A DNA stretch of 63,830 bases, the filler included, from Intoshia linei (lineage: Eukaryota; Animalia; Orthonectida): assembly GCA_001642005.1 (NCBI GenBank). It is 6 parts of 6 records of this genome, joined end to end, with 100 filler letters (N's around TTAATTAATTAA, not from the genome) between each part and the next. Parts side by side here need not be neighbours in the genome. Positions count along the whole stretch, not along the records: positions 10,293 to 22,921 come from LWCA01001063.1; 5 more parts are not named here. One strand, written 5' to 3'. The translations under genes and the position numbers were made by a program. The notes beneath the pieces were generated by a model, which saw nothing but the letters and a program-made list of their open reading frames with translations, was not told the origin of the DNA and ran no database searches. Each line of letters starts with the position of its first letter. The first letter of the stretch is position 1. Of this stretch, positions 10,193 through 61,640 are shown piece after piece.

Positions 10193-10292
10193 NNNNNNNN
10201 NNNNNNNNNNNNNNNNNNNNNNNNNNNNNNNNNNNNTTAATTAATTAANNNNNNNNNNNNNNNNNNNNNNNNNNNNNNNNNNNNNNNNNNNN
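10193..10292. other. Artificial contig spacer (N-TTAATTAATTAA-N, 100 nt)
   Basis: Identical 100-nt six-frame-stop linker found five times in the window. Confidence 0.97.
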
Positions 10293-13846: not shown

Positions 13847-15735
13847 TTAAGGTTTAACTTTGATTCTAATTTTTTGTTTATTTTTTTTGGTATTAAAGTG
13901 CAAAATTTCGTCTTTATTGTTTTCAATCAAAAAATTGCGTGCACTAAGAGTAATTTTGTCTGGGTTTATTTTAGACAATACAATAAAAATAATGTCTGAT
14001 CTAGACTTGATGAATTGTTGAATAAATTTTAATTTAGACTTTATATTTTCAACCGATGAAATAGTGTCTAAATGTAAAATATAAAATTTGAAAATTACAT
14101 TGTACAATGTACAATATTCTAACTTATATAATATACTTTGATTGTCTCTGTGTGTATGTGTTATCGCTAATTTCAATAACTACCAGTCTTAGAATTTTAT
14201 AAAGTCTACATTTCAATTACAGTTTTTACGGCGGATGTTAGCAAAATAAATTTCATCCTCCCAATTGCCCAATTGTCCTTTTTTTTGAAAATCAAACAAG
14301 TTAAAAAATTTAAAAAAATTAAAAAATATAAATATTGATCCTACAATTTCAAAAAAGTTCATAAAGTTGAGTTTTACGATAATGTTAATGCTTTTAAAAA
14401 GCATACTAGAATTTATATTATTTAAATACATAACATCCTCCCTAGAATTTATATTTTATAAAATTTTAGTACATGTTTTATTTTTGAAACATAGGGTATT
14501 TATGGTTTTGACCATGAAGGTGTGCGTTTCTGAGACTGAGATTTACGACAATGTTAATAATTTTATTATGGGTTCCAGAATGTATGTTTTATTCATTTTT
14601 GGGCTCATTGTTTTTAACAAAAGGGTCAATTGGGTTTTTGATCCTGAAGGACTCAAATTCGGAAACTGAAAAATAAATATAGACACGCCCTGGGAAAAAC
14701 TGTATTAGATATTGTGGTTTATTAAATTAGTATTAATATATTCTACAACTGTCAATTTTTTAACTAAACGGTAACACACACAGAAATTCTATTTTATATA
14801 AGTAAAGTACAATCTGTCACTATATATAAATCGACATAGTGTACCTTGTGAGTTGTAAAAAATTTTTTGATTAATTTTGCACATTGAATATATGTTGATA
14901 ATTGACATGTTTATTTTACCTAGACGGGTTCTCATTCTATATTCTTTATCAAGATTAACTTGTCTAAAACGTTCCATACGAGAATTTTTCATTTCAGTCT
15001 TTTCCAATAATTTTTCAAGGTTATTTTTTTCAATATTTAATTTCATAGCAGTTTCTTGGTGAGCTTGTCTATAACATTCTTTCAATTTTTTTTCCTTTTC
15101 AAAATTAGAATAATTAACCTCTATACTTTCTTCTAAATCTTTATTAGTATCTAAAATTGTTTTGAATCGTAGACGCAGAGAATTTAAATTTGATTCTGAA
15201 TGATCATCAGTATAGTTTGCTGGAAATAATGCTGCAACTTGTAGAAGATAATTTTCGTAAATTTTGAAACGACTAATGAAATTTTTTAGTTTGATTAATT
15301 TTTCCTCAAAAGTGCATTTTTTTATTTGGATAGATGCAATTTCGGAAACACATGTATTGTAATCTCGTTTCTCTGAATTGTATTTATCTAATGCTCTTTG
15401 TTGTTTGAATTTAATAGTGTCTATAAAACTTTGAAATTTTAATTTTCTTTCATTTAGTTGGCTAGTGATTTTCATTAGTTCAATGTTTTTCTTTTTACAT
15501 GCCTCCATCCTTTTTAAATATTCTTGTCTTTTCATTTTTAATGCTATAGTCATTTTATTTAGATAAACTGTTTTTCGAATCACTAGAGTCTTTTGTAATG
15601 TATGTCTACTGTTTTCTAGCAATTTTATGGCTGTTTCATCAAATTTTGTTTCACCATCATTTACTCCCATACATAAATTCTCAATCTCTTCTAATGTTAA
15701 TTCTTCATCTTTTTCATTCTTACCTACATTTTCTT
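13847..15735 (-). CDS. CCDC42/CFAP73/CCDC197-family (DUF4200) coiled-coil ciliary protein, at least 2 exons; start uncertain
   Basis: TLVIRK..L..KRQEY..RME..KF.SFI..K.QRA..KY..YENYLLQV pattern. An in-phase splice (donor 14844, acceptor 14068) joins to D-TISSVENIKSKLKFIQQFIKSRSDI, the family C-terminal motif. The frame is open upstream of the ATG at 15670. Confidence 0.7.
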
Positions 15736-18399: not shown

Positions 18400-18444
18400 T
18401 ATATACCATGATGAATTCAATATATAAAAATATTTTAGTGTATC

Positions 18445-18939
18445 CAGAGCCGTTTTAAGGCATGGGCAATATGGACTGTAGCCCAGGGCCACTCATTAAA
18501 AAGGCTCCCAAATTAATAAAAGTACTTCACACTTATATCTTAAAAAGAGGGCCCCAATTTATTAAAAAATACTTCACATTTATATCTTAAGAAACAGTTT
18601 ATAAGTTTTGAAGTGTGGGAATTCAAATAGCTAGAAAGAAAATTGTTTAAAGAATCAAAGTTCTGGTAAATTATTCAATTTAAAATATATTCTACAATAT
18701 TCATCATATAATATTGATATAAAAACTGTTTCAAATGATAATATTAAATATTATAACCTTTCTATTAAGTGAATATTCAAAACAGAAAGTAGGAAATCTT
18801 TGATTTCCTCTTATTAATATTCAAAAAAGGGGCTTCTAAAAAGAGGCCCTAAATTTTTTTTATCGCTTCGTTCAAAACTTTAAAGGACCTCCGGGCCTTT
18901 GCTTAGCCCAGGGCCACGAAGTGGCTTAAGGCGGCTCTG
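18445..18939. mobile_element. hAT non-autonomous element/MITE
   Basis: TIRs CAGAGCCG...TTAAG / CTTAAGGCGGCTCTG, perfect 8-bp TSD AGTGTATC on both sides, subterminal GCCCAGGGCC repeats. Confidence 0.9.
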
Positions 18940-19141
18940 AGTGTATCCCTGATAAATAATTTTTGAATTTTTAGGGTCCACGACGTTTATTAATTTTGGA
19001 AGCAATGTACAAGACGCTATAAATTGTTAAATACATTTGATATAACCCGGATTATTCATTATTGTTTGATTAACTATTTAAACAGTAAATAAATAATGAT
19101 TATGTATATTATTTAATATTGGCATAATTTAAAACTATTTC

Positions 19142-22100
19142 ATGTCGATGAAAGCTAAATTAATAGAAATTAATAAAAAACTGAAAAAATCGTATATTTC
19201 AATACCGAATCCAAATGAAAAAACAAGAATCTCTCAATTATTGTTAACTCTAACAGAAAATAATGTCATTAACTACATTAAAGATTTGAACATAATTAGC
19301 GAATTGGAATTAAAACCAGAAAACGATTCAATTTGGAACAATAACTACATGTTGGATAAAATTTCTAAAGAAATGTGTACATATAATGTTGATAAAAATA
19401 CTAATAATATAATAATAATGATTATTACGAATACTCAATCATTCATGTCCACTTTTTATTTATGTTTGCTCGAAATTTTAAATTTCATAATTGAACATCC
19501 GACATTATTGATAATATACGCCCATGAAATTGGTAATTTATCTGAAACCTGCAAATACCTGATATCTATGTTATCAAAGATTAACGTACTACAAAAAAAT
19601 GAGATTAATATTTTAACTTGGGCAACTGAAATGGAATATACTACTTTTGATACAATTGATTCGAATTTAATTGAAAAGTATCGTTTATTAAACCATAAAA
19701 TGTATGGTGATAATCAATATAATATTAGAGTCGACGAAAATGTTAAGATATCTTTTCATTTCAATTTTAACTTAAAAATTAATAATAATCTTACAAAGCT
19801 AAAAATTCCTTACACGACGACGAATAATTGGATACATCAAGATGACACTAATGAAAAAAAGAATTGTTCATTTATTGATTTGAAATATAAAAAAAATCAA
19901 AAGAATTTTTATGCTTCGAATGAAAAATGGGATAAAATATTAAAAGATGATTCATTTGAATTAAATTATTATGAAACATTGGCTAAATCTTTAAATGTTG
20001 AAAATAGTGATAAATTTTACAAAGTATTGTTAACATGGAATGATATTATTAAAAAAAATCGAAATGCAGATAATCACATTTATATTTTATTTAAAATGTG
20101 TTGTTTTGTTCAATTGGATAGTTTTATGCCATGTTCATTAAATAAGGTGTACAATATACCATATCAAAATGTTGAAGGTTTAAACTTACAAACAGATTTT
20201 GGACCTTATATAAATGCTCCAGTTTTGAATTGTGGTTCATTTTTTGATCATTATTTATGCAAAACCTCAATGGAGTCTGGTTTTGGGTGTACTAAAGAAC
20301 AACTAGATGAATTATACGCAACAAGAATGATAAATTTGGATGGCATTCCAGACAAGTACATTCCAATATTAGTAATGATTGCTAATGGAAGTGATAAAGC
20401 TTGGTTGGGATCAAAATTGTACAAAGATGATTCAATCGATTTGGATGATATTAATGATTACATAACTATTACTGATTCTGATGCCAGCTATATCGGTCCC
20501 AGCGTCATACATTATTACAAGGATTTAAATGCAAAATTTATCACTTATGTAAATACATTTAAAAATATAGAAAATGACAATGACATTAATATCAAAGTAA
20601 TTATTTCTGATTGGTTATTTGTGTCGACCAAAAATTGTAAATACACAAATATTTGTAAAGATTGTGGAAAACGTATTTATTATGATTTCGTACAACTTCC
20701 GGTAAATTCTAAATTAAACGATAAAAAAATGTCGAATCATTATGACGAATATGCCCTCACTGAATGCTATGACCCCGAATATACATACGGGGTACTGAAT
20801 TCATATGTATTCTCTCATAATTTGCACAATCAGTTGAATATCGCTATGCAATTGGTACATATCGCATACCTTTTAGTCGGTCATCCTATATCTATATCAT
20901 TACCAACACCAAATCACTGCATGGATAATATGATGATTTTTAATAAATCGTTATATCGTATGGACGTTGATAATGACGCTTGTTTTGATCCAAATAATCA
21001 AAAAGATGTAATTTATGATAATTTTTATAATAATGCCAATACCGTAACAAAAAATTTACTATGGCAGCAATTATTGTGGTTTAAGCACAGCCTGCTTAAA
21101 ATTTCCAAAATAAGCCCAAATAAACTATTGGAAGAATGTACCCATTACGATATGATTGATTTTTACTTTAAAAATATAATGTTGTGTACTGGTATCGATT
21201 TTTGTAAATTTAAAAGATATTTTAAATATTCCGATAAAAAAATTTTTTCTATGGTAAAATCAAGTCAAATTTGTCAAGAATTGACAATTACCTCTTTGTT
21301 AATGTGCAAAACCTTTTTCGTTGGGGACCCTTTATCTAATCTGAACGGTAAATTTAAAATTTTTAACGATTGTGATTTATTGAAAAAGTTGATAGATAAA
21401 AATCCTAAAAAATCAAGTTTTAAAATAATACCATCATTTTTTAAGAACAAAGATAGTTTTGAACAATTTAATAATTTAATTTTGCTGTCAAAATTAAAAC
21501 CCTCACAGTGGGATTTTGAAAATTTTCCCAAAAGTATAACTTTAAATAATGAAGTGGATATTGTAGAAGATTTATACAAGTTTAAAAACATGCATTCTAC
21601 TACATGTATACATCTCACCCTTGCCGAATTAAACTGTATAATTGAAACTATACTTATATTTAAAAAACGAGACATGGCAGAATGGAATCTTTGTGGATTG
21701 CAGAGTATCACTGAATTAAAAAAAGAATGGATTACTGGTAATAATTTCAAGCATTCAGTATTATCTGAAAATGTTGAATTAATTAATAACGTGCAGATTG
21801 GAACATGGAAAAATGAAATTGTTGATCCTAAACATAATTACCATTTTACAGAATGTTATAATAATTTAGGTCATTATTTGTATCAATTGAATAATAATGG
21901 CTACAGTTTTATTGAACACGTTAAAAACGTGATTACACCAAAAAAATCAATTTTGAGACCATTGTTTTATAACGTTCCGAAAGATTCAGTTTATAAGTAC
22001 GCTAAATACCCCAATATTAATGAATTGTCAACTTGTCAAATTGTAGCTGATTATATATTTTATAAATACTATAGTTATACTATGCTTGACGGGAATGCTA

Positions 22101-22552
22101 ATATTAAATATGGTTACAAACGAAATTATAGTTCCGATTTAGGTGTTTATGAATTTGATAAAAAGTCTGCGAATTTAAAAAGTCAAGTCATGAAAGGAGC
22201 ACAGTTCAATAATAAATTGCGGATGAAACCTTATAATTATATTAAAAAACTTTATAATCATATTATGGAAGTGTTTCAATATTTGAAAGAATCTACTCAA
22301 ATTGATAAAAAGAACCTATTTTGCAAGTCTAAAGATACAATTAATCAAGTCATCGAATCTTTAAATTACAATATGTTTGATTACCCTATACATTTTTTAA
22401 GGTTGAATGATATAGAAAGATGTATATTTATTGATTTAACCATTGTTGAGTGTACAGAAGGTAAAGAAGATTCCAATTTTATTTTTAATAAGAAATTATT
22501 CAATGAAGCAGTATTATTTATTCAAAATTTCCAATGCTATTTTCAAAATTAA
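19142..22552 (+). CDS. Intact intronless 1136-aa protein; probable endogenised totivirus-like (Ghabrivirales) capsid/Gag
   Basis: The ORF itself is certain (3.4 kb open in very AT-rich DNA). Ordered motifs NADNHIYILFKM, MINLDGIPDKYIPILVMIANG..DDSIDL, YGVLNSYVFSHNLHNQLNIA and ISLPTP recall L-A-like coat motifs (from memory). No RdRp motifs. Confidence 0.6.
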   Translation: MSMKAKLIEINKKLKKSYISIPNPNEKTRISQLLLTLTENNVINYIKDLNIISELELKPENDSIWNNNYMLDKISKEMCTYNVDKNTNNIIIMIITNTQSFMSTFYLCLLEILNFIIEHPTLLIIYAHEIGNLSETCKYLISMLSKINVLQKNEINILTWATEMEYTTFDTIDSNLIEKYRLLNHKMYGDNQYNIRVDENVKISFHFNFNLKINNNLTKLKIPYTTTNNWIHQDDTNEKKNCSFIDLKYKKNQKNFYASNEKWDKILKDDSFELNYYETLAKSLNVENSDKFYKVLLTWNDIIKKNRNADNHIYILFKMCCFVQLDSFMPCSLNKVYNIPYQNVEGLNLQTDFGPYINAPVLNCGSFFDHYLCKTSMESGFGCTKEQLDELYATRMINLDGIPDKYIPILVMIANGSDKAWLGSKLYKDDSIDLDDINDYITITDSDASYIGPSVIHYYKDLNAKFITYVNTFKNIENDNDINIKVIISDWLFVSTKNCKYTNICKDCGKRIYYDFVQLPVNSKLNDKKMSNHYDEYALTECYDPEYTYGVLNSYVFSHNLHNQLNIAMQLVHIAYLLVGHPISISLPTPNHCMDNMMIFNKSLYRMDVDNDACFDPNNQKDVIYDNFYNNANTVTKNLLWQQLLWFKHSLLKISKISPNKLLEECTHYDMIDFYFKNIMLCTGIDFCKFKRYFKYSDKKIFSMVKSSQICQELTITSLLMCKTFFVGDPLSNLNGKFKIFNDCDLLKKLIDKNPKKSSFKIIPSFFKNKDSFEQFNNLILLSKLKPSQWDFENFPKSITLNNEVDIVEDLYKFKNMHSTTCIHLTLAELNCIIETILIFKKRDMAEWNLCGLQSITELKKEWITGNNFKHSVLSENVELINNVQIGTWKNEIVDPKHNYHFTECYNNLGHYLYQLNNNGYSFIEHVKNVITPKKSILRPLFYNVPKDSVYKYAKYPNINELSTCQIVADYIFYKYYSYTMLDGNANIKYGYKRNYSSDLGVYEFDKKSANLKSQVMKGAQFNNKLRMKPYNYIKKLYNHIMEVFQYLKESTQIDKKNLFCKSKDTINQVIESLNYNMFDYPIHFLRLNDIERCIFIDLTIVECTEGKEDSNFIFNKKLFNEAVLFIQNFQCYFQN

Positions 22553-22695
22553 TAAATTTTTTTTTAATGTCTTCTTAATTTTTCTTTTGTCTTCAAAAAT
22601 GTAAAAATAAACCAATTTATTGAAAATGAAACAAGCTTGGCTGTTATGTACTTCGTACAAGTAGCACTGCTTATTGAGCAGCTATCTGTCGAATT

Positions 22696-22921
22696 TTGAA
22701 GTCTTTTGTCAGTATTTTGAAGAAACACGCTAGAAATTTAGGCAACGACGGGGTTGTGTCCTATCACTGCATGATTTACCAGGAAGCTTTATGTGCCAAG
22801 TCGCTTGAGATGGTGAACATGACAAGCGCCATCATTAGAGTTGTTAATTTTATTAGAAAGAATAGTACAAATCATAGGCAGTTCAAAGTCAGCATTGAGG
22901 ATTTCGACGAGTGTGATGTTG
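22696..22921 (+). pseudogene. hAT transposase fragment (SPIN/GTF2IRD2/EPM2AIP1-like)
   Basis: HCMIYQEALCAKSL...VVNFIRKNSTNHRQF matches HCIIHQEALCAK...VNFIR...LNHRQF. Cut by the spacer. Confidence 0.85.
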
Positions 22922-23021
22922 NNNNNNNNNNNNNNNNNNNNNNNNNNNNNNNNNNNNNNNNNNNNTTAATTAATTAANNNNNNNNNNNNNNNNNNNNNNN
23001 NNNNNNNNNNNNNNNNNNNNN
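22922..23021. other. Artificial contig spacer
   Basis: N-TTAATTAATTAA-N, 100 nt. Confidence 0.97.
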
Positions 23022-23628: not shown

Positions 23629-24850
23629 CTAATGTTTATTAATTATATCTATGGTATCTTTAACTGACTCATCGTCAATGTACTTAAGTGACGCCCTATC
23701 TCGTAACACTTGGACTCGATGAATGGCTCGTTCGGGGACCTCATTGGTCATGGCTACATTTAAAGGAGGAATTGAAGTATAAGCGTGTCTTTTCAAAAAA
23801 CATAAGCAACAATTACACCTTTGTGGGAAAATACAATATGGAACTCCTGTCACGGCTGAATAGAGGGACTGTTGATATGAAGAAATGTTTTCGTATACGG
23901 TAGCATTCAACCAACAATGAACGAATGTGTTTGCAATAAATGTGCAACACTATTCCAACCCCGTTTGCCGAATACCTATTGTAAATATTGTACAATAAAT
24001 TATAATAATTACCTAAAATCCATGCTTGCAACGCTTATATAGCTCTCGAATTCCATTGAGCATTGCTTAATGATCTCAATTTAAGCCACTTAACTTTAGG
24101 CCAATCTCCAGTTTGCATAATTTTATATGCTGATGATAAATGTTCAAGTTCAAAATAGTCATCACGAATCCAATTGGAGTTTTTAGAAACACATTGAAAG
24201 TCATGAGACATTTCAGAATATGATTTGGTTAGTTTATCATAATTTGAATATAATTCATCTATAAGTTTATGTTTTTAAAAGATTAAATATAAATTTTTAC
24301 TTATGAATTCATAACCGATGTTTGGAGATTTGTTCATGCTTCCTAATTTCGCATCCATGTATAGCCGTAATAATCGATCTAGTATGTGTCGCTGACATCC
24401 AAAATATGGAATACTTCCAATAACATTTTTTTGTAATTTTCAAATTATCCCATTACGCCCCGTATTTACAGAACATGTTCAGATATTACCATCTTAATAT
24501 TATCTTGGATGGAATATCTTTCAATTATATTTTTTATAGCTTAATAAATAGTTTCTGCTTTACCGTTTGGTAGATATGCAACTCCAATTGGTAATCCTGT
24601 TTTCATGTTTTCGGATTCAAAGCATACTACTTGCATTTCCATTCCATCAACCCGCTTTCCGTCAAAATGAAGACTTAATTTTCGATCTGGAGCATTCTAT
24701 AACCGCAAGGTATTTTCCAATAATGGATTTAATGTTTGGAACTCGTATTAGTTTTTCAAGGCTTGCCTCCAATCGAGGAAAATCAGAACATCTCTTAACC
24801 TTTAAATTTATATTACCGGAACGCTCTTTCTGACTTTTAGTTGTAGTATT
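23629..24850 (-). pseudogene. Degraded hATm-like DNA transposase
   Basis: Across frameshifts and stops: TCSVNTGRNG, FGCQRHILDRLLR, IRDDYFELEHL, LSNAQWNSRAI, AMTNEVPERAI. Confidence 0.7.
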
Positions 24851-25280
24851 AGAAACATTAAAATATCAATAAAATCAATAATCACAATGCGCAAAATATC
24901 ATTATACAAAATCAAATTAAATGAATTGTTTATGTTGAATTAATAATAATGAAACAAGTATAATCGGTGTCTGATTATTCATGTATACTATACATACATA
25001 TTATGTATACTTTATAATAATTATAATTAATAATTCATTAATTTGCTCATATTAGGCGGTATAACATTACAGAAACATTTGTTTAGTTTGAAATTTCCAT
25101 TTAAATATTCTACTTGAAAAAATTGCATTTTAAATTCTAAATTTAAATTTAGAATGTAATGAAAATTATCTTAGAATTTGACAATTATATTATTTTGATA
25201 TTTTCAGTAAGTAATAATGCATCTGAATTGTATTTATAAATTTAAATATAAATGTATTATTTGAAGTCCATTCTCTAGAG

Positions 25281-25374
25281 CAGTGGTCACCAAACTTTTT
25301 GGCATGGAGGCGGAATAACTAAAAAAAATAATAATAATAAAATTCAACTGCGGGCCGGTGTTTGGTGACCACTG
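25281..25374. mobile_element. 94-bp hAT MITE
   Basis: TIR CAGTGGTCACCAAAC / GTTTGGTGACCACTG. TSD CTCTAGAG / CTCTACAG (7/8). Confidence 0.8.
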
Positions 25375-26005
25375 CTCTACAGCGACATTTATTTCAGCGA
25401 TGTATTGTTGGATCGATACATCATATATCGGCATAATCATAGATTTTACTAATTTATCGTATCTTTGATTTTTTCAAGAGATTTTTGTGGGTTTCTTTAG
25501 GGAAAATTTTGGGTCCAAAAATTAGTTGGGTTTTTAAGGGATTTTTTTAACCCAATTTTTAAAGATTTTTATAATTTTTAGACAAAAATTTAGAAGGGTT
25601 TTTAAGGAAACATTTTTTTTTATTTAATTTTTAAAAATTTTGAAGATACGTTGAAATATTTAAAAAAATTTCCCTTAAAAACCCCAGGTGTGCCCAACAC
25701 GGGGTTATACTGTAGTTTAATCAATAATTATTAATATTTTAGGATGTAATAGATTACATTAAATTTAATATCTTCTATAAAACTTAATCTAATTCATATT
25801 TACCTTTATAGATGCATTATTTGAGGTATTAATCTATACTAATAATATACTATATATAATTACTAATATACTAATTACATTGTATGATTTTAGTCAATAT
25901 TCGGAAAAAAAGAAATGAAAATTGATGACGGTGGTCTTTCTGCCAATAGTACCGTCGAAAAAGTCGCCAAATAGTAAAAAATGATGAATTAAATTTTTAA
26001 AAAGT

Positions 26006-46400: not shown

Positions 46401-48940
46401 TAAATACTTATCTGAAATTTAGTATGCCCCGATAATTGTCTGACTTGTACTTCTGCCACAACTTGTACAAAATGTAAAGATACTTTCGTATTTTCATCCA
46501 CCGAATCGAGTTGTGTAAGCTGTTACGCCAGTTCAGCTACACCTTGTGATCAATGTTCAACTACCACTATTGGAAAGTATTACGTTTCTACCACAAAATT
46601 ATGCCTACGTAAGATTTAGTTGTTTAAAGTTTTCACCGTTTTTATTAGCTTGTGCCGCTTTATCAATGGCAACTATTGCTGATACTGCTGTATGTAGTCG
46701 TTGTGGACCAGTACTTTCCAGTAAAGCCGTATATTGGTCAGCAACAGCTTCACCAAAATGCCAAAGTTTGTCACATTTGTTCGTATATACATAATTTATT
46801 TTAGTGTGCATAGCAAATTGCAATAAATGTAGCGATTCAATTGGTTGTTCAGAATGTGCGTCAGGAAGATACCTTAAAGCTGGTGCTAGTGGAGCTGCCG
46901 GGTCCTGCGATGGTAATATATTAAAATCAAGTATATTTATAATGTATAGCTTGCATAACCGACTGTAGCTCATGTGGTGATGCCACCAGTTGTTCTACTT
47001 GTGTTTCCGGAACTTATTATGATTCTTCAGCCAGCCCAGCCAGTTGTAAAAGTAAGTAGTAATACAATTTATTTGAAAATTTGTTGCATTCCATAAATCT
47101 TTGATTATTTTAGAATGTCCAACCGACTGTACACTTTGCTCTGTAGCCAAGAAATGCGATAAATGTGTCACCAACAAGTATGCTGATGTCACCACTGGAG
47201 TATGCGGAGGTTTTATTGATATTTATTGCTGTTTAAATGTATTTAATTTCAGCTTGCATAACTAACTGTGCTACCTGCGACACTAATACCCCATGCATAA
47301 AATGTAACTCTGCCTACTTCCTCAATGCCGCTAAAACCCCAAACGTCTGTGAAGGTAATATAACGTTTTAGTCTTACATGTAAAATAATTATTTAACTTG
47401 TACAGCATGTCCATCCAACTGTAAAACATGTACCAGCGGAACTGTTTGTACCGAATGTAATTCATCCTTCTGTTTGAACCAAAATAAATTGTGCAGCGCA
47501 AGTGCCAACAAATGTAAGACTTGCACAGTTAGTGCTGCTACACCAGCAGTCGTAAGCTGTTTAGACTGTGTTGTCAATCACGTATTGGATATATGCAACG
47601 GTTTTTACAATTTTTTCTAATTAATATTAGTCTAGCTTGTTCTGCCAATTGTCTCACTTGTACCAGTGCCACAAAATGTACAGCTTGCGCAAAAGCTACC
47701 TACTTGAGTACTGATGTTTGTAAAGGTAACTTTTGTACCATTCTACTTTATTGAATGAATTATCTAGCATGTGGAGCAAATTGCGAAACTTGTACTGCAG
47801 ATACCAATTGCAGCAAATGTACTTCAAAGACGATGTTCTTTGATGTCGCAGCAAAAGCATGCAAAGGTATAATTTAGTTATGGATTATGTATAACAATGT
47901 TTTAGTTTGCGATGCCAATTGTATTTCATGCATTGATGCCACCAAATGTGGAACCTGCGGTAAAGGATACTTTGTTAAAGCTGATAAATGCGTCGGTAAA
48001 TACTTATACATTTCACAAGTTTTATGACATTATAGCTTGTCCTACAAATTGCGTCGCTTGTTCGTCAGCAGATACTTGCAATACATGCAAAACAACCGGA
48101 ATGAACTTTGATGCAACAAAAAAAAGCTGCGTTGAATGTGGACCCCTATGTAAAACATGCTCCAATAGCACTGTATGCAGTCACTGTGAAGCAAGTGGAT
48201 ATATGGACACTGCAGCTAAACCAATAGCCTGCAAAAGTATGAAAAGTTTAACTTAAATTTACCGTGTTTAGACTGTGTCGATTCAATTACAAATTGTTTA
48301 ACTTGTGGGTATGATGTAGCCGGAACAGTTTTACTGTGTAAAACTTGTAAAGCCGGTTACACTTTGAAGGAAGACGGAAAATCTTGTGTAGGTTAGTAAA
48401 ATTAATTATCTAAACTAATATTGGTAAATTCAGCATGTTCAAGTGGATGCAAATCGTGCATTGATCCAAAGCCAATATGCAAAACATGCTCTACTGGATT
48501 TATCCCAAGTTTTAAACAATTAAATTGTGGAGCTAAATCTTGTTTCTTGTGTGACACTCTTAAAGGCGCAAATTGTACCAGTGGAGCTGCCAACTTTACT
48601 CATGGCGGATGTCCCTATGATTGTTTGGTAATATTTTAAATTTTCACATTTTTAATTTCAAATTTATAAATCTTTTAGATTGAAGAAAATTTAAAGACTA
48701 AAAGAATGTTCAGAGGATGTTCGAAAGGAAAATGTACTCCTGAAAATAAAATAAAAATGTGTAAAACTGTAAAAAATATAACGGTAGTATGTCATTTTAT
48801 ATCCATAATTTTTTTTCTAGGTATGCGAAAGGTGTTGTGATACACCATTGTGCAACCACGGTGGAATTTCTTCCAGCTTTAATGTCGCATACAATTTCTT
48901 TATTGTTATGTTTATTTTGATTTTAAATGTAGTTTTATAA
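40423..48940 (+). CDS. Large secreted CXXC/furin-like-repeat (VSP-like) surface protein with C-terminal Ly6/uPAR domain and GPI signal; about 39 exons
   Basis: Exons 40423-40450, 40491-40520 and 40644-40757 give the signal peptide MNISGFFCIVFISICAFGIDA-QTKC. Repeats follow as CxxNCxxCxxxxxCxxCxxxY..C, roughly one per exon. Terminus SCFLCD...CPYDCL|...RGC...|VCERCCDTPLCNHGG-ISSSFNVAYNFFIVMFILILNVVL*. Confidence 0.85.
43875..45060 (-). mobile_element. hATm-like transposon relic in a long intron of the CXXC gene
   Basis: ORF 44770-45039 EIYQCWTKHDIPV...IIKRI...LFDAI resembles the N-terminus of this transposase family. TAGGGC-type end at 43875. Confidence 0.45.
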
Positions 48941-53541: not shown

Positions 53542-53641
53542 NNNNNNNNNNNNNNNNNNNNNNNNNNNNNNNNNNNNNNNNNNNNTTAATTAATTAANNN
53601 NNNNNNNNNNNNNNNNNNNNNNNNNNNNNNNNNNNNNNNNN
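53542..53641. other. Artificial contig spacer
   Basis: N-TTAATTAATTAA-N, 100 nt. Confidence 0.97.
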
Positions 53642-60103: not shown

Positions 60104-60203
60104 NNNNNNNNNNNNNNNNNNNNNNNNNNNNNNNNNNNNNNNNNNNNTTAATTAATTAANNNNNNNNNNNNNNNNNNNNNNNNNNNNNNNNNNNNNNNNN
60201 NNN
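60104..60203. other. Artificial contig spacer
   Basis: N-TTAATTAATTAA-N, 100 nt. Confidence 0.97.
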
Positions 60204-61540: not shown

Positions 61541-61640
61541 NNNNNNNNNNNNNNNNNNNNNNNNNNNNNNNNNNNNNNNNNNNNTTAATTAATTAANNNN
61601 NNNNNNNNNNNNNNNNNNNNNNNNNNNNNNNNNNNNNNNN
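61541..61640. other. Artificial contig spacer
   Basis: N-TTAATTAATTAA-N, 100 nt. Confidence 0.97.

Follow-up and report, generated by a model that had tools for sequence, protein, structure and literature searches.

A single long open reading frame (ORF) in the genome of the orthonectid Intoshia linei, designated P0001, is in our reading an endogenous viral element derived from the capsid gene of a toti-like virus, with a probability that we put at about 0.88. The ORF lies in a 63,830-nucleotide stretch of assembly GCA_001642005.1, six parts of six records joined end to end (hereafter the window), and runs from ATG to TAA over 1136 amino acids (aa) without an internal stop (Table 1). An initial annotation, made from the sequence alone, had described it as an intact, intronless and domesticated capsid gene. 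The frame is real, and "intronless" holds for the open genomic frame, although not at the transcript level. It is the sole stop-free frame longer than 315 aa in a window with four frames of at least 150 aa, and the chance of an open frame of this length at the window's composition is about 1e-40. As far as sequence comparison reaches, a toti-like capsid origin is well supported for the middle third of the protein (aa about 280-690), which has one strong block and weaker collinear ones. The integrated capsid gene is thus placed by profiles that were built without the query, but not beyond these limits.

Toti-like contigs were fetched from IMG/VR through their polymerase motifs (240 loci) and the upstream ORFs were taken. 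Thirty of the first 120 loci had such an ORF, and 29 were used for a profile of L-A-type capsids, of which six of six tested match PF09220. P0001 was left out of all capsid profiles, and the 1,501 controls were made from the protein itself, shuffled 1,000 times globally and 500 times locally and once reversed. With the L-A-type profile P0001 scores 3.2 bits, two of 500 shuffles score higher, and hhalign gives a probability of 0.47%; the profile's two best stretches on the protein (aa 305-339 and 550-572) are in order and fall on motifs that had been named from the sequence. Among the 74 capsid-side ORFs, that of the unnamed contig L193 gives the best single match, an alignment of aa 538-595 without gaps at E 7e-4; L193 groups with L154 in a clade weakly linked to L136. 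Exact look-up identified L154 as Ustilago maydis virus H1 (UmV-H1) cap-pol, L136 as Botrytis porri botybirnavirus 1 and L003 as Saccharomyces cerevisiae virus L-A. The UmV-H1 clade, which we take to be the family Monocitiviridae, here comprises L154, L241, L242, L200 and L243-L246, and the botybirnaviruses comprise L136, L157 and L247. Against a profile of six UmV-H1-like and botybirnavirus sequences P0001 scores 16.8 bits (best control 4.7), against one of ten sequences 19.1 bits (best control 4.3), and against one of eleven, A5, 17.5 bits, where it ranks first and the 1,501 controls reach at most 5.2. The profile check thus had two outcomes, a null with PF09220 and a clear signal with the UmV-H1/botybirnavirus capsids. 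In hhalign A5 matches P0001 with E 2.5e-4 and a probability of 43%, and at the same helix it matches the L-A-type capsids with E 2.5e-5 and a probability of 75%. The ordered-block chain score, computed with a fixed tiling of the UmV-clade alignment, is 96.9, whereas shuffled proteins averaged 49-51 and the highest of 500 reached 84.6. A5 found nothing at E <=10 among 177,635 PDB sequences, a homologue search with the L-A-type alignment retrieved 15 L-A-like proteins but nothing that linked them to P0001, and a victorivirus-type (PF05518-like) profile of five capsids gave -3.6 bits on P0001. A DNA pattern for the helix motif matched just two L-A contigs in IMG/VR; it had been designed around L-A, so it was not counted.

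Over the core, alignment A4 shows collinear blocks at 16-25% identity to eight viral rows, with several insertions, the longest of 32-39 aa. The best-conserved block is gap-free against both UmV-clade and botybirnavirus capsids and contains a helix pair with Y555, L561 and Q564, then P588-x-P590-x-H592-x-x-D595. All four motifs of the initial annotation are present (aa 308-319, 396-416, 551-568 and 585-590), and the best-scoring stretches fall there. In a tree of 161 block-region columns, midpoint-rooted for drawing and without L244, which lacks the block, P0001 and the UmV and botybirnavirus rows stand apart from 18 L-A-type rows with support of 98/97; its position as sister to the UmV rows is less well supported (89/77), and long branches were flagged. 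P0001 and the UmV-H1-clade capsids are alike in the length that precedes the DNH block (about 310 aa in P0001, about 280 in UmV-H1), but P0001 has no fused polymerase, carries insertions and has no detectable match past about aa 690. Botrytis porri botybirnavirus 1 shares the H-N-L-x-x-Q helix and the P-x-P-x-H-x-x-D motif with P0001 without a gap, whereas its upstream blocks are differently spaced; botybirnavirus genomes consist of two segments. The UmV-H1-like and botybirnavirus capsid regions themselves have no Pfam coat match (0 of 5 ORFs) and no PDB sequence match. The polymerase motif scan also returned two unnamed IMG/VR contigs, L146:226-4188 (1321 aa) and L173:175-7308 (2378 aa), which are not among the best capsid-core matches.

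An L-A-like donor, as first suggested, does not fit these results: the closest sampled capsids are UmV-H1-like and botybirnavirus ones, the L-A-type profile is not significant, PF09220 does not match P0001, and the tree places it outside the L-A rows. L-A Gag and P0001 align in order at the DNH block and the Y-V helix, but E309, W313 and R329, invariant among 18 L-A-type sequences, have no counterpart in P0001, nor has His154. The latter is the decapping histidine of L-A, according to the accessible text of PMC6164181. Its column holds L347 in one alignment and Y371, with H370 adjacent, in the other (A4). Because no histidine of P0001 aligns there, and the UmV-clade rows also lack one, cap cleavage, a function that had been proposed, is without support.

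The ORF had also been described as lacking a polymerase downstream, and this stands. A profile of RNA-dependent RNA polymerase (RdRp) from 56 toti-like sequences was run on the six-frame translation of the window in 908 pieces, none of which scored above 4.4 bits, and only 369 bases separate the stop of P0001 from the filler gap at 22922. This is not a complete toti-like virus genome: RdRp is neither fused to P0001 nor found within those 369 bases. We also considered whether P0001 is a capsid-polymerase fusion with a dead palm at aa 790-890, like the single-ORF UmV-H1. In phmmer, residues 794-861 weakly match several L-A-type polymerases around motif A, with a best E of 0.2, and by eye the spacing is like that of motifs A, B and C, but the RdRp profiles (56 toti-like sequences; eight UmV and botybirnavirus palms) leave P0001 unranked, with hhalign probabilities of at most 0.15%, and the protein has no GDD motif. 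The idea was rejected on these profile nulls and is very improbable.

Ordinary database searches do not see the viral relationship. phmmer against 1.84 billion representatives returned four proteins at E <=0.001, P0001 itself and three partial paralogues, all recorded as hypothetical proteins of Intoshia linei, and no viral relative. Pfam matched neither the whole protein nor six fragments, a PDB sequence search with the whole protein and two parts found no relative, and two ESM Atlas searches gave no match. A word-indexed search found no near-full-length homologue, and no related locus was found in viral and metagenome contigs. A PDB match to a zeste domain (E 0.007, 48 aa) was taken as chance. 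A confident match to a cellular or transposon protein, which would have spoken for a different origin, is likewise missing from Pfam, PDB, ESM Atlas and phmmer. A rapidly evolving host gene confined to this lineage and resembling a capsid by chance would also be invisible to Pfam, PDB and ESM Atlas, have phmmer relatives only in Intoshia and fail to reach significance with the L-A-type profile. However, the UmV-clade and botybirnavirus profiles, which were built separately, and the weaker L-A-type profile all pick the same stretch, the blocks are collinear, and the control profiles (victorivirus-type capsids, RdRp, and middle and N-terminal parts of the polyproteins) have no signal. We consider such a chance likeness improbable.

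Several observations weigh against a viral capsid origin or limit its reach. About two thirds of P0001 is without an assigned origin: aa 1-279 do not match the N-terminal parts of three UmV-H1-clade polyproteins, and neither these residues nor aa 691-1136 match any part of the sampled viral polyproteins. One block alone is significant by itself, the 43% hhalign probability is modest, and the profile score of P0001 would not stand out in a whole-database search. The AlphaFold2 models have mean predicted local distance difference test (pLDDT) scores of 29.6 and 33.1, too low to judge the fold, and Foldseek with the latter found nothing at E 0.001 in BFVD or PDB, a result that is meaningless at that confidence. 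The UmV-H1/botybirnavirus set was picked after a first look, and it was therefore checked in parts. P0001 ranks first with the three botybirnaviruses alone (8.7 bits against 6.1), with the eight UmV-clade sequences alone (9.8 against 4.7) and with A5 minus the two closest contigs (15.3 against 4.9); with the first four UmV-clade rows alone, one of 1,500 shuffles scores above it.

The element is embedded in host DNA. Contigs from one sequencing run, X1 (taken as a DNA run by guess), span 18901-19920 and 21450-22849 and so cross from an upstream repeat into the ORF and from the ORF into a downstream relic; host genes are nearby. One X1 contig that spans the ORF and a flank has a single gap at an unlocated position. 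From a second study, X2, five gap-free pieces cover most of the ORF and bridge neither end. The host-ORF junctions are thus both crossed, with the reservation, which tells against this evidence, that all bridging contigs come from X1, possibly the assembly's own source.

Table 1. Features of P0001 and its immediate flanks, in positions along the window.
Feature	Position	Strand	Basis
Intact ORF P0001, very probably a toti-like capsid-derived endogenous viral element	19142..22552	+	Gap-free cover by five X2 contigs, plus X1 contigs
N-terminal part, aa 1-279	19142..19978	+	Shared piecewise with P0003 and P0004 (blastp)
Putative capsid-homologous core, aa about 280-690	19979..21211	+	Collinear with UmV-H1-clade capsid regions (alignment A4); ordered-block score
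DNH helix block, aa 309-319	20066..20098	+	Best L-A-type profile stretch; aligned to GDNH block of UmV-clade capsids
N-x-x-G block, aa 396-416	20327..20389	+	Two alignments; by itself not significant
Best-conserved block, aa 543-595	20768..20926	+	17.5 bits against at most 5.2 in 1,501 controls; hhalign
C-terminal part, aa 691-1136	21212..22549	+	Not detectably polymerase; aa 680-946 71% identical to P0002
Miniature inverted-repeat element, high-copy host repeat	18445..18939		495 bp, terminal inverted repeats, 8-bp target-site duplication
Multi-copy transposase-like relic, cut by gap 22922-23021	22596..22921	+	Depth, translation

The composition of the ORF is that of its host, in agreement with the initial annotation (GC 26.0%, window 26.4%). 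The lowest GC among 247 fetched viral loci is 34%, and the 11 closest have 41-55%. The amino acids F, Y, M, I, N and K make up a fraction of 0.46 of P0001, 0.18-0.30 of the 74 viral capsid-side ORFs and 0.435 of the neighbouring host gene. The copies of the gene in the genome differ from each other at roughly 12-15% of bases under a neutral model. Host-like composition takes far longer to acquire than this divergence, and the copies therefore split inside the host unless the donor was extremely AT-rich. Two points tell against our reading: GC at third codon positions is 0.237 in the ORF, near background, and lower (0.19) in the host neighbour, and the composition would call for no long residence if the donor was an AT-rich virus of this host. 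The corresponding alternative is that P0001 was inserted recently from an AT-rich toti-like virus of this host, one outside the sample, and has no function; its frame would be open because of its youth, the paralogues would be older independent insertions, and the purifying signal would date from the viral phase. The neutral look of the present alleles (12 replacements to one silent change) fits it, as does an allele divergence of about 0.4%, too small to require selection for an open frame; the copies sit among transposon relics, and repeated independent insertions of one virus lineage are described for planthoppers in the accessible text of PMC10636211. It needs, however, a virus of 26% GC with host-like amino acid bias, whereas none of the 247 loci falls below 34% GC and none of the 74 capsid-side ORFs exceeds 0.30 in that amino acid fraction, a sample that is mostly fungal and environmental, and no polymerase relic was found in the window. 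We regard it as unlikely, if a serious contender.

Protein searches for paralogues, one of the checks proposed at the outset, yielded three partial copies. P0002 matches aa 680-946 of P0001 at 71% identity, P0004 matches aa 163-248 at 52%, and P0003 matches in three pieces and jumps from aa 356 to 508. An X1 contig skips 453 bp (20207 to 20661), without GT-AG ends, at the place of the P0003 jump; as the skip is present in DNA and lacks such ends, that copy carries an internal deletion in its DNA. P0004 and P0002 have consecutive Intoshia linei locus tags on contigs recorded with equal length, and their other parts look by eye like coiled-coil host sequence, to which Pfam lends no support; from the tags and this remainder, a host gene probably harbours a second copy. 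The two models may describe a genuine chimeric gene, or gene prediction may have produced them artificially across an intronic copy, and the conservative divergence of the P0002 segment from P0001 would fit past or present function.

That divergence is the main sign of selection. The 73 replacements between P0001 and P0002 include 41 conservative and 19 radical ones, where a neutral simulation gives 31-34% conservative and 48-49% radical; under each of two settings, none of 400 runs reached the observed values. The P0003 comparison looks neutral (7 of 23 replacements conservative), a pattern to be expected where most change falls on a decaying copy. Neutral drift of 5% would bring about eight stops into P0001, and there are none; the zero-stop counts of P0002 and P0003 were not counted, given gene-prediction bias. 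A rough ratio of replacement to silent rates (omega) of about 0.3 from one X1 contig, based on 26 differences in 255 bases at 21149-21403 and on 11 replacements in 75 codons against P0002, assumes that the contig is the P0002 locus and was likewise not counted. The alleles point the other way, and this too counts against domestication: of 13 listed differences in the ORF between window and run contigs (at least 13 exist, and with totals of 15 for the X1 contigs and 12 for those of X2 the list is probably near-complete), 12 alter an amino acid and one is silent, a ratio that fits neutrality (P 0.10-0.26) and rejects omega <=0.3 (P <=0.006). The excess may reflect recent relaxation or antiviral-like diversifying selection; it may also mean that the insertion is young and neutral, or that selection acts weakly in a small population. 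None of the 13 introduces a stop. The selection check is therefore divided between conservative divergence from P0002 and neutral-looking alleles, and because of the latter the domestication proposed in the initial annotation, favoured by host composition and the P0002 comparison, falls short of being demonstrated. A once-domesticated gene that has lately lost its constraint and begun to decay, as its paralogues have, would reconcile the purifying P0002 comparison with neutral alleles, and at least one paralogue already carries a deletion. Against this, the listed differences hold no stop and the five X2 contigs no gap, and mildly deleterious replacements are common as segregating variants of functional genes when populations are small; we hold lost constraint to be a rather unlikely explanation. 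On balance we lean slightly towards P0001 being a currently functional, domesticated host gene.

How such a gene could have arisen can be sketched. Reverse transcription by host retroelement enzymes is an established route for non-retroviral elements, and capsid-side viral RNA may have been copied in this way and inserted without the polymerase. The gene would then have been resident until it reached the 26% GC and AT-biased amino acids of its host, and would have been duplicated, one copy (P0003) decaying and another coming to lie among coiled-coil host exons (P0004, P0002). The present copy may be expressed and oligomerise through a retained helical core. The retained blocks are common to distant capsid families and can be read as the structural core. 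We look for the role at the protein level because small-RNA defence needs no open frame of 1,136 codons. The candidate function that we rank first, tentatively, is that of a dominant-negative subunit, which would spoil the shells of related dsRNA viruses by assembling into them. This putative decoy is favoured because it would best join the old purifying signal, the present replacement excess and the turnover of copies. An unrelated structural or scaffold role, by analogy with the planthopper gene NlToEVE14, ranks second and is a somewhat fainter possibility. RNA-packaging particles, ranked third, seem quite improbable, and the same low standing is given to an Arc-like arrangement in which capsid-derived particles carry RNA between parasite cells or into the parasite's host and the second copy has been exonised into a coiled-coil gene. 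Taken jointly, a UmV-H1/botybirnavirus-related capsid gene long kept by host selection, most likely as a decoy, is a reading on which the odds appear to us evenly balanced.

Two known systems are comparable. NlToEVE14 of Nilaparvata lugens is, in the accessible text of PMC10636211, a toti-like capsid-derived gene in an animal genome. Its predicted product, of about 106 kDa, is comparable in size, and it has a diverged paralogue at 71% identity, as P0001 has P0002. It differs in that the same text reports translation, a role in development and fecundity, and a cognate virus known through tBLASTn, whereas the capsid link of P0001 was made by profile alone; the two are likened by description and not by sequence. 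The totivirus capsid-like genes of yeasts are, as far as the text available of PMC2805616 goes, likewise integrated capsid genes, with copies under purifying selection and with decapping residues changed in several copies. According to the same text they reside in fungal hosts, derive from L-A-type donors and match Pfam LA-virus_coat, and some lie beside polymerase sequence, whereas P0001 resides in an animal, does not match Pfam, traces to a donor lineage other than L-A and has neutral-looking alleles.

The flanks and neighbours of the ORF had been described as hAT and Helitron relics and as host genes cut into short exons. Repeats are present on both sides. The upstream element, with exact 8-bp target duplications at 18437-18444 and 18940-18947, ends 202 bp before the ATG; its left part has a read depth of about 1,000-2,600 in X1 and X2, and the depth of the element is more than 100 times that of the ORF in both. 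Weakly supported X1 joints link the end of this element to the interior of other ORF copies (19889, 22047). The relic that begins at about 22596 has a depth of 135-151, against about 10, in X1, and no transposase was found in it by Pfam. The hAT label may apply, given the 8-bp duplication, which is typical of hAT elements, and a transposase-like motif, but no Helitron was found by Pfam in 12 read-through frames of both 2.4-kb flanks. At about 24400-24800 (-) there is a broken frame with an L-H-F-D-G-K stretch, which we take to resemble a DDE-type transposase relic and not a Helitron, although Pfam gave no match; a 110-bp element at 25273-25382, with 23-bp inverted ends that are 96% complementary, is likely another miniature transposon. 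Among the host genes, a Pfam scan of 68 window frames spread ALG3 over three separate frames and placed Not3 and Tcp10_C in short ones, but a DUF4200 gene (14789-15670, -, E 1e-12), head to head with P0001 and 3.5 kb away, has an unbroken frame of 293 aa. A GC-richer stretch (46416-48253, up to 37%) holds cysteine-rich repeats that match a Giardia VSP model below its cut-off and is probably an EGF- or laminin-like host gene. The N gaps (10193-10292, 22922-23021, 53542-53641, 60104-60203 and 61541-61640) each consist of two 44-N runs around a 12-base spacer; the one at 22966-22977 is a palindrome rich in stop codons, which we read as a linker.

Co-opted dsRNA-virus capsid genes are documented in yeasts (PMC2805616) and planthoppers (PMC10636211), as far as the accessible parts of these papers show. 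Literature on viral elements of Intoshia, orthonectids and annelids, in which subscription journals were thinly covered, gave no description of the present element. P0001 is a previously unannotated viral-capsid-derived gene of a reduced animal parasite, of a kind that is already known. If our reading is true, it would extend co-opted dsRNA capsids to a highly reduced parasitic worm, an orthonectid, and to a donor lineage whose named members so far come from fungi. It would also point indirectly to germ-line infection by such dsRNA viruses in this animal lineage. Since P0001 is invisible to Pfam, phmmer and ESM Atlas, further old viral genes may be concealed among the long orphan ORFs of AT-rich animal genomes.

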